Source: Thermodesulfobacteriota bacterium
Lineage (GTDB): Bacteria; Desulfobacterota; Desulfobacteria; Desulfobacterales; SURF-7
Assembly (NCBI GenBank): GCA_049320885.1
Contig: JBMORA010000022.1
Span: 64,001 to 128,000 of the forward strand
Reading direction: 5' to 3'
DNA: 64,000 nucleotides
The notes beneath the pieces are model-generated. The model was given only the letters and a program-made list of their open reading frames with translations, did no database searches and had not been told where the DNA came from. The translations under genes were made by a program, and so were the position numbers. Shown here one piece after another: positions 42,984-57,148 of the stretch; positions within the stretch are counted from its first letter, which is position 1, and each line of letters begins with the position of its first letter.

Positions 42984-44624
42984 TTAATACATGTCGTCAT
43001 CCATTCCGCCCGGCATGCCGCCCGGTGGCATGGCCGGCTCTTTTTTCTTCTCCGGCTTTTCGGCGATCATGGCCTCGGTGGTCAGCATGAGCGCGGACAC
43101 CGAGGCGGCGTTCTGGATGGCAAAGCGCACCACCTTGGTGGGATCGATAACGCCGGCGGCCAGCAGGTTTTCATACTCCTCGGTTTGGGCGTTGAACCCG
43201 AAGTCGTCCTTGCCCTCCAGCACCTTGTTGAGCACCACGGAACCCTCTTGGCCGGCGTTCTTGGCGATCTGCTTCAACGGTTCGGTCAGGGCGTGCTTCA
43301 GGATGGAGATGCCGCTTTTCTCCTCTCCCTTGGCCTTGACGTTCTCCAGGGCCTTCACGCACCGCACCAGGGCCACACCGCCGCCGGGCACAATGCCCTC
43401 CTCCACGGCGGCCCGGGTAGCGTTCAGGGCGTCTTCCACGCGGGCCTTTTTCTCCTTCATTTCGGTTTCAGTGGCCGCGCCGACCTTGATCACCGCCACG
43501 CCGCCGATGATCTTGGCCAGCCGCTCCTGGAGCTTTTCGCGGTCATAGTCGGAGGTGGTCTCCTCGATCTGGGCGCGGATCTGCTTGACGCGGCCCTCGA
43601 TGGCGGCCTTGGTGCCGGCTCCGTCCACGATGGTGGTGTTGTCCTTGTCGATCTTGACCGTCTTGCAGGTGCCCAGGTCCTTGGCCTTGATGTTCTCCAG
43701 CTTGATGCCGATGTCCTCGGAAACCACCTGACCGCCGGTCAAAACGGCGATGTCCTCGAGCATGGCCTTGCGGCGGTCGCCGAAGCCCGGCGCTTTCACC
43801 GCGGCCACTTTCAGGGTGCCCCGCAGCTTGTTGACGATGAGCGTGGCCAGGGCCTCGCCTTCCACATCCTCGGCGATGATCAACAAGGGCTTGCCGGCCC
43901 GCGCCACCTCCTCCAGCAGGGGCACCAGGTCCTTCATCACAGAGATTTTCTTCTCATGGATGAGGATGTAGGGATCTTCGAGCACCGCCTCCATTTTCTG
44001 GGAATCGGTGACGAAGTAGGGGGAGAGGTAACCTTTGTCGAACTGCATGCCCTCGACCACCTCCAGGGTGGTCTCCATGCTTTTGGCCTCCTCGACGGTG
44101 ATGACACCCTCCTTGCCCACCTTTTCCATGGCCTCGGAGATCAATCGACCGATGGTCTCGTCGCTGTTGGCCGAGATGGTGCCCACCTGTTCGATCTCTT
44201 TCTTATCCTTGGTGGGTTTGGACAGCTTCTTCAGCTCGGCCACAACGGCCTCGACGCCCTTGTCGATGCCGCGTTTGAGGGACATGGGGCTCACGCCGGC
44301 GGCCACCAGCTTCTGGCCTTCGTTGTAAATGGCCTGGGCCAGCACCGTCGCGGTGGTGGTGCCGTCGCCGGCCGTGTCGCTGGTTTTGCTGGCCACCTCC
44401 TTGACCATCTGGGCTCCCATGTTCTGGAACTTGTCTTCCAGTTCGATCTCCTTGGCCACGGTCACACCGTCCTTGGTGATGGTGGGCGATCCCCAGGATT
44501 TGTTCAGGACCACGTTGTTGCCCTTGGGGCCCAAGGTCACCTTCACGGCATTGGCCAGAATATTAACGCCCTGGAGCATGGACTCCCGGGCTTTTGATCC
44601 ATAGGCGATCATTTTTGCAGGCAT
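42984..44624 (-). CDS. groL: Chaperonin GroEL
   Basis: [30 protein letters not shown] and a GGM tail. Confidence 0.99.
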
Positions 44625-44640
44625 GGCTTGTTCCTCCTTT

Positions 44641-44934
44641 TCAGTTCAAAATTCCCAGAATATCGTCTTCGCGCATGAAGATGTGTTCCTCGCCGTCGAT
44701 CTTGATTTCGGTGCCGGCGTACTTGCCGAACAGGATGCGGTCCCCCTCCTTGACCTCCAGGGCCGTCCGTTTGCCATCGTCGTCCCGCTTGCCGGGCCCC
44801 ACGGCCACGACCAGCCCTTCCTGGGGCTTTTCCTTGGCGGTGTCCGGGATGATGATGCCCCCGGAGGTCTTCTGTTCCTGCTCCACGCGCTTCACGATGA
44901 CTCTGTCATTCAAGGGTTTGATTTTCATTTTCAT
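44641..44934 (-). CDS. groS: Co-chaperonin GroES
   Basis: [21 protein letters not shown] and KYAGTE. Confidence 0.99.
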
Positions 44935-44999
44935 TCCTCCAATTGCGATTTGAGTTGAGTGTGTTGATATTTAAAAACAATCACTTGCAAATCATTCAA

Positions 45000-45026
45000 G
45001 AAGGCCGCTTCGGTTCAGCGGCCTTC
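45000..45026. other. Hairpin between hsp20 and groES
   Basis: gaaggccgct-tcggttc-agcggccttc; no long U-tract. Confidence 0.6.
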
Positions 45027-55368: not shown

Positions 55369-55369
55369 G

Positions 55370-56854
55370 TCAATTCTCCTGTGCCTTGCTCCGGGATGTG
55401 GGACGCATCAACTTCGCGTCGTACCAATCCGGGCCATAGGGATGCGCCGGGCCAGGCGTCGATGGCAAATCGGACTTATCGGCCTCTTTTTCCAGCGGGC
55501 CGTCAGGGGTGTCGCCGGCCAATACCTCTATGGAGTCCCCGTCCCGGAGGAGGTGATTCAGGGCCGCGGTTCGGCCGTTCACTTTCACCGCCGCGCCCTG
55601 GGGCGCCTCGATGTTGGTAATGGTCAGGTAATCGCGAACCGTGGCCTTTTCCGCCAGGCGCACGATCCGGCCGCCGTTGCCGAAGACCACCAGATGATCC
55701 TGGAACACCTGCCGGTGCAGCAGCTCGACAAACGCCTCGCTGTTCGGCGCTTCGGCGTGCTGGTGCCTGAGCCCCCGCATCCATTGGACCTGTCGGCGGT
55801 CATGGTCCGAAGCCTTGGACGCGCTCTTGTACCGCCAGTGGGCCGCCGTGCCGTGTTCGGCCTCCATGTGCATCAGCTCGGTGCGCACCTGGAACTCGAT
55901 GGGTTTGTGGGAGATTTCCCGGACCGGATAGACGCACGTGTGCAGGGATTGGTAGCCGTTGTCCTTGGGCAGCCCGATGTAATCGTCGAAGGTGCCGGGG
56001 ATCGGTTTGAAATGGGCGTGCAGCAAGCCCAGAACCGTGTAGCACTCGGGCACGGACGCCACGATCACCCGCAAGCCCACGCGGTCCATGATCTCTTGAA
56101 GGGACCTGCCGGTTCGCGTCATCTTGCGGTGAATGCCGTGCAGACTCTTGGTTCTACCCTGAACCCGGCCGGCAATGCCGTTATTGTCCAGCAGGCGTTG
56201 TACCCCGTCCAAGAGGATTTTCAGGCATTTGTCGTCCTCGGCCTGGATCGGAGCGACGCGTTCCTTGAGGTATGCGTATTGCGCCGGGTCAAGGATGCGA
56301 AGACAGGCGTCCTCCAGCCTGCGCCGCAAGTCGCCCAAACTGAGACGGTTGGCGATGGGCACCAACAGGTCGAGGGTCTCTTGGGCCATGCTTCGGGCCG
56401 CGCCTGAACAGGGCGGCGTGGCGCATTCCAGGGCCAACAGTCGAAAGGAGATAAATAACAACACCTTGCGGGGGGTCCCGCCCATGGCGTCCAATATCTC
56501 CTGTATGTCTTTATGCCGGTAAGGCCGGCCGCCGTCATGGGAGGTGAAAGGGGGATGCAGGTTTTCGAGGGTGGCGGCCACGGCCGGCCCGAAGCGGTCC
56601 CGAATCTCATCCGGCGAGGCGAGATCTTGCCACAAAAGAGGGGCTAAAAAGGAAGCGGCGATGGAGACCGCGTCCGCTTCCTGTTCGAAAAGCAGGTCGG
56701 CCGCATGGTAACCCGCTGAATTGTCGGCGCATTTATTTTCAATAAAAAAGGCGTGCGCCCGGCCCACCAGGTCCGCTTCCGCCGCCGTGAACGTTTGATT
56801 TATCTTTTCAATAAATAGGCTGTCATCAGCCAATCCCAGAGTATCTCGACTCAT
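55370..56854 (-). CDS. RelA/SpoT homologue: pseudo-hydrolase, synthetase and degenerate TGS; C-terminal regulatory domains absent
   Basis: GRTKS, DRVGLRV, DDYI..PK.NGYQSLH, EFQVRT..MH..AE.G.AAHWRYK and KVNG; no HD motif; only 494 aa. Confidence 0.9.
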   Translation of the reverse strand: MSRDTLGLADDSLFIEKINQTFTAAEADLVGRAHAFFIENKCADNSAGYHAADLLFEQEADAVSIAASFLAPLLWQDLASPDEIRDRFGPAVAATLENLHPPFTSHDGGRPYRHKDIQEILDAMGGTPRKVLLFISFRLLALECATPPCSGAARSMAQETLDLLVPIANRLSLGDLRRRLEDACLRILDPAQYAYLKERVAPIQAEDDKCLKILLDGVQRLLDNNGIAGRVQGRTKSLHGIHRKMTRTGRSLQEIMDRVGLRVIVASVPECYTVLGLLHAHFKPIPGTFDDYIGLPKDNGYQSLHTCVYPVREISHKPIEFQVRTELMHMEAEHGTAAHWRYKSASKASDHDRRQVQWMRGLRHQHAEAPNSEAFVELLHRQVFQDHLVVFGNGGRIVRLAEKATVRDYLTITNIEAPQGAAVKVNGRTAALNHLLRDGDSIEVLAGDTPDGPLEKEADKSDLPSTPGPAHPYGPDWYDAKLMRPTSRSKAQEN

Positions 56855-56923
56855 TTCCCGAAATGTCCAGAATCAACAATATGTCAACGTATCTATTGGG
56901 GTTTTGGGCTTATAAAGCCTCCT

Positions 56924-57148
56924 TTACAGGTCGTCGGGCAACAGCAGCCGTCCCAGTTCGATCATATTGTCGCAATACGTCTCGATCAGCCTCAATGCCA
57001 TCTTGGATGGCAAAAAACGCCCGTTTTCCCACCGGTTGACGGTGGCGTAACTCACCCCGATCTCCCTTGCAAAATCCTCCTGGCTAAGGTCGAGCTGAAC
57101 CCGGACCTCCTTGATAAGAATCACGAAATCGTACCGTTTGATCCACAA
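56924..57148 (-). CDS. XRE family HTH transcriptional regulator
   Basis: LSQEDFAREIGVSYATVNRWENG; GGGAGG RBS. Confidence 0.9.
   Translation of the reverse strand: MWIKRYDFVILIKEVRVQLDLSQEDFAREIGVSYATVNRWENGRFLPSKMALRLIETYCDNMIELGRLLLPDDL

Follow-up and report, generated by a model that had tools for sequence, protein, structure and literature searches.

A thirteen-gene cassette of alarmone, mannose and chaperone genes

The window analysed here is a stretch of 64,000 nt from contig JBMORA010000022.1 of a Thermodesulfobacteriota bacterium, and it carries between positions 42984 and 57148 a cassette of thirteen genes, all on the minus strand, in which an alarmone synthetase belonging to the RelA/SpoT homologs (RSHs) is joined to a block of mannose enzymes and to chaperones. 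The cassette opens with an XRE-family helix-turn-helix protein (56924..57148; PF01381), also found upstream of the RSH gene in 13 of 26 RSH loci, and continues with the RSH itself (55370..56854), a truncated protein of the long type with a dead HD domain, intact synthetase motifs, a TGS-like domain and no C-terminal regulatory domains. The sugar block starts with a glycosyltransferase of family 4 (GT4) fused to an (alpha/alpha)6 barrel (53035..55368), in which Pfam covers residues 67-380, and with a GT4-like protein that is a distant paralog of the GT4 domain upstream (51819..53045; PF00534, E 2e-9). It goes on with a phosphomannomutase/phosphoglucomutase (PMM, 50442..51797; PF02878-80 and PF00408), the glycoside hydrolase family 130 protein GH130a, a predicted beta-1,2-mannoside phosphorylase (49444..50436, with a start possibly at 50412; PF04041), a GT4 with a C-terminal cupin of the phosphomannose isomerase (PMI) type (48089..49441; PF00534/PF13439 and PF01050), GH130b, a predicted beta-1,3-mannoside phosphorylase (47155..48102; PF04041), and the mannose-1-phosphate guanylyltransferase ManC (46022..47140; PF00483 and PF22640, and the N-terminal part of TIGR01479). 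Two small heat-shock proteins matching PF00011, Hsp20a (45473..45952) and Hsp20b (45043..45453), are followed by groES (44641..44928), recognized by family profile matches, and by groEL (42984..44624), the fourth copy in the genome (three others at 78-82%).

The original prediction for this locus, made from the letters alone, had listed the same thirteen co-oriented genes and families, and all were found as minus-strand open reading frames (ORFs). Its description of the junctions was also borne out by measurement: from RSH through ManC the gaps are +1, -11, +21, +5, +2, -14 and +14 nt, the RSH stop lying 1 nt from the next ATG and every junction being an overlap or a gap of at most 21 nt. The remaining gaps are 69 nt (XRE-RSH), 69 nt (ManC-Hsp20a), 19 nt (Hsp20a-Hsp20b), 114 nt (Hsp20b-GroES) and 16 nt (GroES-GroEL). 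The cassette is more than a chance assembly, since its gene order was found again in other genomes at 88-96% nucleotide identity. None of its proteins has a membrane-spanning stretch (highest 19-residue hydropathy 1.65, versus 2.49 for an HtpX control) and a family profile search of the window proteins matched no transporter, flippase or polymerase family, in keeping with the cytoplasmic system of the original prediction. The GC content of the cassette (56-62%) is near that of the contig (55%) and gives no mobility signal; Rfam and tRNA scans of the 64-kb window found nothing. The source genome (G000, 5.6 Mb), whose named relatives are of Desulfobacterales type, also encodes a normal 719-aa Rel and three further groEL genes, so that the RSH and groEL of the cassette are extra copies.

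The cassette is cargo of a temperate myovirus prophage

The 13-gene cassette sits at the right-hand end of a temperate myovirus prophage, as seen most completely in an uncultured Desulfatitalea (genome G061, locus L021) that carries it at 93-96% nucleotide identity. Upstream of the cassette in this genome are genes for a serine integrase, primase, terminase, portal, major head, sheath, tube, tape-measure and baseplate proteins and then a tRNA-Asn, of which the last 9 bases are repeated at the far cassette end, 94 kb away (C6:454303 and 360430). The cassette is the last cargo in this prophage of about 94 kb, between att repeats and together with integrase, head and contractile-tail genes. In the window, the 9-bp att core corresponding to the 3' end of a tRNA-Asn is located at 39853..39861 (minus strand), and homology with G061, G062 (L023) and G064 (D. 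cetonica, L057) stops at 39853, the flanking DNA being different. The last gene within the element encodes a TM0106-family RecB-like nuclease (40167..41666, plus strand; TIGR03491, above cut-off), found at the same position in L021, L023 and L057. Between it and groEL, two small ORFs without family match (41720..42447, minus strand) fill a variable slot that in D. cetonica holds a DacZ-type diadenylate cyclase. On the other side of the cassette, the type I restriction-modification (RM) genes hsdR, hsdS and hsdM (57364..64000, minus strand) occupy the variable defence slot of the prophage, hsdM extending beyond the window. The element therefore exceeds the cassette, the prophage end running from 39853 to beyond the window. 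That the unit is transferable, as originally proposed, is supported by the att repeats and phage genes of G061; its prophage setting had been missed.

A comparable arrangement was recovered from D. cetonica JCM 12296 on two contigs, whose join is inferred: the first runs from tail genes through hsdM, hsdS and hsdR, with RM genes 96-98% identical, and the second contains hsdR, all 13 genes (several of them frameshifted in the draft), the diadenylate cyclase, the nuclease and the att end. Past the window, the source contig continues with hsdM, genes for a gamma-glutamyl cyclotransferase, a glutamine amidotransferase and an amidoligase, and a 1138-aa phrog_877 protein before the contig ends; a phage gene conserved at 88% identity lies at this end. 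In G000, only the prophage right end and four phage-region genes were assembled. In D. cetonica a second serine recombinase (L057:7892-9595) reads into the att from outside, suggesting tandem elements at one tRNA end, and in G061 an IS-type transposase breaks the prophage type I RM genes (L051:1623-3203).

Related phages among viral contigs keep the same order up to the cyclotransferase, followed by BREX, Kiwa or RM genes, and the RM slot is a defence hot spot. A myovirus family with a fixed defence slot after the amidoligase trio was seen in L192, L194, L197, L200, L201, L206, L208 and L209 (downstream of about position 12000), the slot containing BREX, type I, II and III RM, Kiwa and PADLOC candidate systems. 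The trio of amidoligase, glutamine amidotransferase and gamma-glutamyl cyclotransferase lies before the cargo slot in L043:4740-8028 (G000:C22:128739-132027), L037, L039, L040 and the viral loci L190-L214, and precedes cargo in the prophage family and in a conjugative element alike.

The phage is not the sole vehicle, other copies adjoining conjugation genes or sitting away from phage genes. A phage marker gene was detected in 2/5 and 0/5 of the carrier genomes tested, i.e. not in 8 of 10, and in L040 a type IV coupling protein and an amidoligase lie upstream of the cassette. Viral contigs contained no relative of the RSH subfamily, the GT4-barrel, Hsp20a or the nuclease; none of 80 amidoligase loci had cassette genes, with a 10-kb flank that barely reaches the cassette position; and GenBank phages gave no GT4-barrel at E 1e-20. 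The RSH matches in phage and plasmid records (among the best 10 of 33 and the best 10 of 56) were 29-34% identical, like housekeeping Rel.

The RSH belongs to a hydrolase-dead subfamily

By its sequence, the RSH is part of a clade of its own, hydrolase-dead and ending after TGS. The HD motif is intact in none of 120 homologs (351-545 aa) and reads AP in 91 of them, while the second Asp of the HD domain is replaced by Phe in 112. In contrast to this loss, the synthetase residues D257, E320, R234, K236, K244, R262 and Y292 (matched to Rel numbering) are kept in 116-120 of the 120. The protein is thus predicted to be a (p)ppGpp synthetase with its catalytic Asp/Glu, ATP-binding Arg/Lys and guanine-stacking Tyr. 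The RxKD/ExDD position reads T-F-D-D, with T in 119/120. The TGS His is replaced by Asn in 106/120, and the structural model comprises the Rel N-terminal domains, a TGS-like domain and a disordered tail (pLDDT 75.6). Because the TGS His and the C-terminal domains are lacking, control by ribosome and tRNA is unlikely, regulation through transcription or a small ligand being the likelier option. It is very improbable that this RSH pyrophosphorylates GDP-mannose itself, an activity that would fit the altered acceptor motif and does not fit the trehalose or chaperone-only loci described below.

In a quick tree, which leaves out L062 (a split gene), the 26 island RSHs form one side of a branch with 100% support against 51 housekeeping proteins. 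Within the clade the order ignores host taxonomy: a zixibacterium sits next to Desulfonatronum, and bins of Geobacteraceae and Verrucomicrobiota, which may be misassigned, sit next to D. cetonica. The subfamily is rare, with 1 carrier among 60 relatives, 4 among 150 genomes of the order and 2 among 400 of the phylum (the last count scoring 3 candidates per genome); in a metagenome scan that was swamped by housekeeping Rel, 2 of 80 loci were of this subfamily. Second-copy long RSHs beside a housekeeping Rel have been described as RshC and RshD, of which RshC also ends after TGS and RshD is deltaproteobacterial and possibly transferred, with a similar host range (PMC3153485). Both are labelled there as hydrolase-bearing ([HS]), unlike the cassette RSH with its HD hydrolase motif no longer intact, a comparison that for RshD is by description only. 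No follow-up papers on RshD were found in the open-access literature.

A mannose block with a predicted mixed-linkage product

The barrel domain fused to the first GT4 belongs to a large family (no fewer than 8000 clusters when grouped at 90% identity, and 2733 representatives with E <1e-30 at the 50% level) to which database look-ups gave no name. It models as an (alpha/alpha)6 barrel (AlphaFold pLDDT 97.5) and its closest fold match is YPO2471 (PDB 7tem; Z 38.8, rmsd 2.5, 336 aligned), followed by AGE-family epimerases (Z 28-30) and GH76 (Z 23-28). The acids D445, D446, D722 and E736 are conserved across 115 distant homologs and, together with the DD, DG and GAES motifs, are shared by YPO2471, suggesting that the barrel is a glycosidase or transglycosidase. 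YPO2471, for which no paper was found, is a stand-alone exported protein, whereas the barrel here is fused to a GT4. An assignment as AGE epimerase was not accepted: these enzymes use a pair of catalytic histidines, the barrel has a single conserved His (H430), and its identity to AGE and GH76 is 7-14%. Nor was a GH76 label accepted, for which the conserved D445-D446 pair and the fold score would speak.

Both GH130 proteins keep the proton-donor Asp and the phosphate-binding Arg/His and have no signal peptide as judged by hydropathy, the measure used throughout. GH130a shows the residues R, E, D, K, R, H, D, a set kept by 14 of 15 homologs (1 truncated), and GH130b shows R, E, D, R, R, H, D, kept by 27 of 29 (2 truncated), in keeping with the phosphorylase activity originally proposed. 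As an E/K pair at the +1 subsite is associated with beta-1,2 and an E/R pair with beta-1,3 mannoside phosphorylases (PMC7660257), GH130a is predicted to be a beta-1,2 and GH130b a beta-1,3 enzyme; the best PDB sequence match of both is TM1225, a beta-1,4 enzyme. Beta-1,2 and beta-1,3 GH130s are reported to synthesise from mannose-1-phosphate and weakly from GDP-mannose (PMC12814180).

Among the solved GT4s closest to those of the cassette are the lipid mannosyltransferases PimA/PimB, and the second GT4-like protein (51819..53045) had no PDB sequence match. GT4 enzymes are retaining and make alpha links, whereas GH130 enzymes act on beta links. Retention of configuration by GT4 enzymes is also stated in PMC8950772. 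This stereochemistry does not support the mannose-oligomer cycle of the original prediction as it stood: alpha links made by the GT4s are not cleaved by GH130, the two cannot be the forward and reverse reactions of one linkage, and a simple cycle in which GT4 makes and GH130 breaks was rejected. Given a retaining GT4 and a beta-specific GH130, the product is likely mixed, an alpha-linked primer with beta-mannose extensions.

The blocks recur together and apart

We tabulated 26 RSH loci, 22 from one search together with L044, L061, L062 and L176; L177 and L270, which repeat L036 and L025, were not counted twice. The GT4-barrel gene directly follows the RSH in 16 of these loci (partial in L034), chaperone or protease genes (hsp20, groESL, dnaKJ, clpB, degP or htpX) are present in 14, and both occur in 8, so that RSH, sugar genes and chaperones do meet elsewhere, as the original prediction required. 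The mannoside block is found without chaperones in 2 loci with ample DNA and in 6 on short contigs, and neither is found in 3; L037 is cut. Remnants of manC, the second GT4 and groEL in L021, L024 and L027 point to deletions from a fuller cassette. In 4 of the 26 loci, genes for trehalose synthesis or for trehalose/maltose-type import stand in place of the block: trehalose-phosphatase and trehalose-phosphate-synthase homologs follow the RSH in L035, a synthase precedes it in L038, and in L031 and L041 the next gene encodes an ABC binding protein that comes closest, among solved structures, to MalE3 and a trehalose/maltose-binding protein. The Clp protein of L042 is ClpB by cut-off and falls below the ClpG/ClpK cut-offs. 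Identities along the cassette are mosaic in L028 and L030, with 73-79% for RSH and GT4-barrel versus 93-96% for most downstream genes.

Homologs of the DacZ-type diadenylate cyclase turn up in several loci (L057:11285-12226, L027:18894-19862, L035, L038 and L293), placing a second nucleotide messenger beside the alarmone. An AAA ATPase of 360-373 aa with no assigned family lies among cassette genes in L039:9940-11061, L040:14885-16006 and L024:10225-11307, the last of which also holds a partial second RSH copy.

The sugar block was also followed in 150 genomes of the order drawn without regard to RSH, 27 of which have a GT4-barrel gene. The core of the 28 loci fetched (among which L270 was counted) consists of the GT4-barrel, a GT4, GH130b and a long GH130. 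Chaperones from a preset list were present in 5 of the 28 versus a background of 4.7%, groEL in 4 versus 1.4%, and, after post hoc addition of ftsH, SPFH and cls, 9 versus 6%; the background being one genome and kin not being independent, the significance of these enrichments is overstated. Adding G047, 8 of 29 sugar-block loci (background about 0.8%) have a RelA/SpoT-type synthetase, of three distinct kinds: 4 are the present RSH, 3 are proteins of 380-390 aa right behind the block and 1 is a protein of 259 aa inside it. The 380-aa synthetase was found in 5 of the 150 genomes, directly after the block in 3; in the fourth, synthetase and block are 29 kb apart within a single co-oriented island that also contains usp, dnaJ, two hsp20 and ftsH, and the fifth genome lacks a block. 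This small alarmone synthetase, with an unknown C-terminal domain, sits in stress islands with FtsH and SPFH (L273:14778-15917, L284:14752-15930, L296:5216-6355, L298:8044-9264, L300:9539-10675).

Among 29 plasmid records, 10 were read. A Sphingobium amiense plasmid has the order groES-groEL-manC-PMI-GT4-GH130-PMM, with a class I PMI unrelated to the cupin, 46% GT4 identity, and PMI and GH130 types that differ from those of the cassette; we read this as an independent joining of groESL to the sugar block. On a Sphingomonas paucimobilis plasmid, manC-GT4-GH130 lies beside grpE, dnaK, dnaJ, usp and dps. None of the 10 plasmid loci has an alarmone synthetase. These plasmid assemblies and the loci of the order lend independent backing to the link with stress that had been proposed.

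Two congeners have no more than a groEL-GT4-barrel-GT4-GH130 unit, 65-72% identical and without this RSH (G002, L275:8949-15419; G001:C72:27108-32975), in which groEL is directly upstream of the GT4-barrel gene; the G002 unit is preceded by genes for a PfkB kinase and a pyruvate kinase, and no groES was matched there. In L299:11080-16563 (G053), a SIS-domain protein, a GT4, an invertase-like barrel, a glucokinase and Usp are encoded between the GH130 genes and dnaJ-hsp20, possibly a second solute pathway.

Regulatory elements and transcription

A sigma-70-like promoter is predicted upstream of the XRE gene at 57202..57229 (minus strand; TTGCAC, 16 nt, TATAGT with an upstream TG), both boxes being conserved in all 13 of the XRE upstream regions that were aligned. 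Immediately upstream of the RSH start, an alignment of 23 upstream regions revealed a conserved element (56858..56900, minus strand) with a TTGACA present in most of them and no visible ribosome-binding motif. On the same strand, a terminator-like hairpin follows manC (46002..46017), of a kind that alone is not significant (20 such sites in the scan versus 19.2 expected), and a GC-rich hairpin between hsp20b and groES (45000..45026) is kept in 4 of 8 aligned loci (the window, L021, L023 and L024). With these hairpins in the ManC-Hsp20 and Hsp20-GroES gaps, the chaperone genes may be separate or attenuated units, and one transcript across all 13 genes cannot be assumed. In four RNA-labelled runs from digester and sludge, contigs cover the cassette but cover the phage tail control genes too (28/30 bins in X14, 25/30 in X8 and 12/30 in X2), so that they do not discriminate and are no sign of transcription. 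The same limit applies to one 2964-nt contig that spans GH130a to Hsp20a in a manC-less variant.

A candidate mobile stress-tolerance module

We interpret the cassette as a mobile stress-tolerance module that would make a cytoplasmic mannoside protectant or reserve, together with chaperones and under (p)ppGpp control, a reading to which we give a probability of roughly 0.55. Judging from their families, the PMI, PMM and ManC homologs would furnish mannose-1-phosphate and GDP-mannose. From the GT4 enzymes would come an alpha-linked primer, which the two GH130s would extend or trim with beta-1,2 and beta-1,3 mannoses to give a small cytoplasmic protective or reserve sugar, and the barrel may be a hydrolase that takes off the alpha link. 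Growth would be slowed by (p)ppGpp from the hydrolase-dead RSH, Hsp20 and GroESL would hold and refold proteins, and the lysogen would benefit by surviving stress.

Several observations weigh against this interpretation. The blocks separate freely and are not obligate partners, a point on which the original prediction is not upheld as it stood: 25 of the 29 sugar-block loci are without this RSH and 21 have no synthetase nearby, 23 of the 28 lack a preset-list chaperone in the fetched DNA, and 8 of the 10 plasmid loci have no chaperone in flanks of 7-10 kb. Conversely, 5 RSH loci (and L061, cut) have chaperones without the mannoside block, which in L023 and L032 is gone while RSH and chaperones are kept, and L021, L024 and L025 have lost PMM, ManC, the second GT4 or the GH130s. 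The cassette comes after a defence hot spot, and its accretion there is possible. No head or tail genes turned up in the assembly of G000, and the source copy may be a defective or incompletely binned prophage. One position of the RSH synthetase motif is changed, from Ser to Gly in 75/120 homologs, and the T-F-D-D acceptor motif is unusual. The GT4 donors and acceptors are unassigned, the use of GDP-mannose being predicted only, and no CIRCE-like operator was found in 27 stretches at up to 4 mismatches or genome-wide at up to 3.

It is unlikely that the GT4s instead add mannose to some component of the cell (a lipid of the inner membrane, cytoplasmic proteins or a precursor passed to export machinery of the host), with the GH130s editing or recycling the glycan and the chaperones and RSH merely co-regulated. 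Three GT4 domains, their PimA/PimB relatives and the cardiolipin synthase, SPFH and FtsH genes that recur as neighbours would agree with such a role, and prophage genes often alter surface receptors. However, no flippase, polymerase, ligase or membrane protein occurs in the window cassette, nor is one constant in the 28 loci of the order or the 10 plasmid loci, and trehalose genes occupy the same slot. Likewise unlikely is a piling up of separate fitness traits at a cargo hot spot, sharing only a promoter and without functional coupling between alarmone, sugar and chaperones. The free loss of each block and the mosaic identities along the cassette are as expected from it, but the 1-nt coupling of RSH and GT4-barrel is not, nor is the linkage to the same block of three different synthetases and, several times separately, of groEL, dnaK and hsp20.

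We regard as improbable a prophage defence or dormancy device in which the hydrolase-dead RSH floods the cell with alarmone upon superinfection, as for Phrann gp29, the other genes supporting or releasing the arrest. The cassette is prophage cargo directly after the defence slot, prophage alarmone synthetases are known in defence, and a prophage synthetase without its own hydrolase is what it has in common with the toxic small alarmone synthetases (toxSAS) such as phage Phrann gp29-gp30 (PMC7229694). As described there, a toxSAS toxin consists of one domain and is encoded with an antitoxin in an operon of two or three genes, whereas the cassette RSH has three domains, variable neighbours and no constant antitoxin-like partner (XRE in 13/26) and heads a sugar-chaperone unit; a toxSAS assignment was rejected on this architecture. 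The neighbours are chaperone and solute genes, and 8 of the 10 carrier genomes examined gave no match to the phage marker. PADLOC gave a weak match to PDC-S33 (E 1e-15) in the synthetase domain only, and no other cassette gene among 6 tested.

Salvage of beta-mannosides to mannose-1-phosphate and GDP-mannose, for use by the GT4s in an unrelated glycan, appears quite improbable, even though the barrel resembles AGE-family epimerases, which pair with GH130 in mannan breakdown. The cluster Teth514_1785-1796 of Thermoanaerobacter X-514, for which salvage was proposed, has the same enzyme classes in one unit (two GH130 phosphorylases, a mannose-1-phosphate guanylyltransferase and a GT4) but also five ABC-transporter genes and a GH5 (PMC4264767), none of which is present in the window cassette or in the core of related loci, and PMI and PMM point to de novo supply. 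The parallel drawn in the original prediction is not supported as it stood, that cluster being one of import and salvage, and relative to it the cassette adds PMI, PMM, the GT4-barrel fusion, a predicted beta-1,3 enzyme, RSH and chaperones.

To return to the stress-tolerance module, it resembles the transmissible stress-tolerance locus (tLST) in being a horizontally spread island with extra chaperone copies and two sHsp20, and sister loci of the RSH or sugar block hold psiE, htpX, degP, ftsH, cls and thioredoxin reductase, as does the tLST. In contrast, the window has no ClpG/ClpK, yfdX, hdeD or kefB, and has GroESL, RSH and the mannose pathway instead. The envelope and oxidative modules (yfdX, hdeD, trx, kefB, psiE-like, htpX, degP) are absent between att and RM, single members appearing in sister loci; the terms groEL and glycosyl occur 0 times in a tLST review; and the cassette is prophage-borne in Desulfobacterales-type hosts. 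It would work like a tLST without belonging to that family, and is one complete representative of a stress-island family built from modules. With the mannogen of Leishmania it would share a cytoplasmic beta-mannoside made and broken via GDP-mannose and mannose-1-phosphate by five-bladed propellers (PMC8950772, PMC12814180). Leishmania, however, uses GT108 transferase-phosphorylases, whereas both cassette propellers are PF04041 GH130s; mannogen has no counterpart to the GT4 priming or the barrel domain, and the cassette product is a prediction from its genes.

More tentatively, and as a possibility we would not favour at present, many bacteria may have an undescribed cytoplasmic pathway for a mixed alpha/beta-mannoside, a trehalose-like protectant or mannogen-like reserve made by a GT4-barrel fusion and GH130 phosphorylases, that is wired to alarmone signalling through three separately recruited synthetases, the GDP set free by the GTP-consuming mannose cycle plausibly being converted to ppGpp, and that has been spread with chaperones by temperate phages, conjugative elements and plasmids as a stress kit of anaerobes. 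A description of the combination of alarmone synthetase, mannose block and chaperones was not found in the open-access literature, subscription papers lying outside the search. The GT4-barrel family is large and without assigned function, and the locus offers a testable one with all precursor enzymes in one piece. If the interpretation is true, it would add a new bacterial protective or reserve sugar, a new family of barrel enzymes and a ribosome-independent RSH subfamily, and would tie GDP-sugar flux directly to (p)ppGpp at the genetic level, and a phage would supply anaerobes of digesters and sediments with a full stress kit including GroESL.

Features beyond the att site

Just beyond the att, at 37484-39673, the window encodes a MazF-like toxin, an HtpX protease and a vapBC-like pair, which may together make up another small island. 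Further along, at 33092-36787, a sulfatase is paired with a radical-SAM/SPASM maturase in DNA of 48-51% GC, below that of its surroundings.

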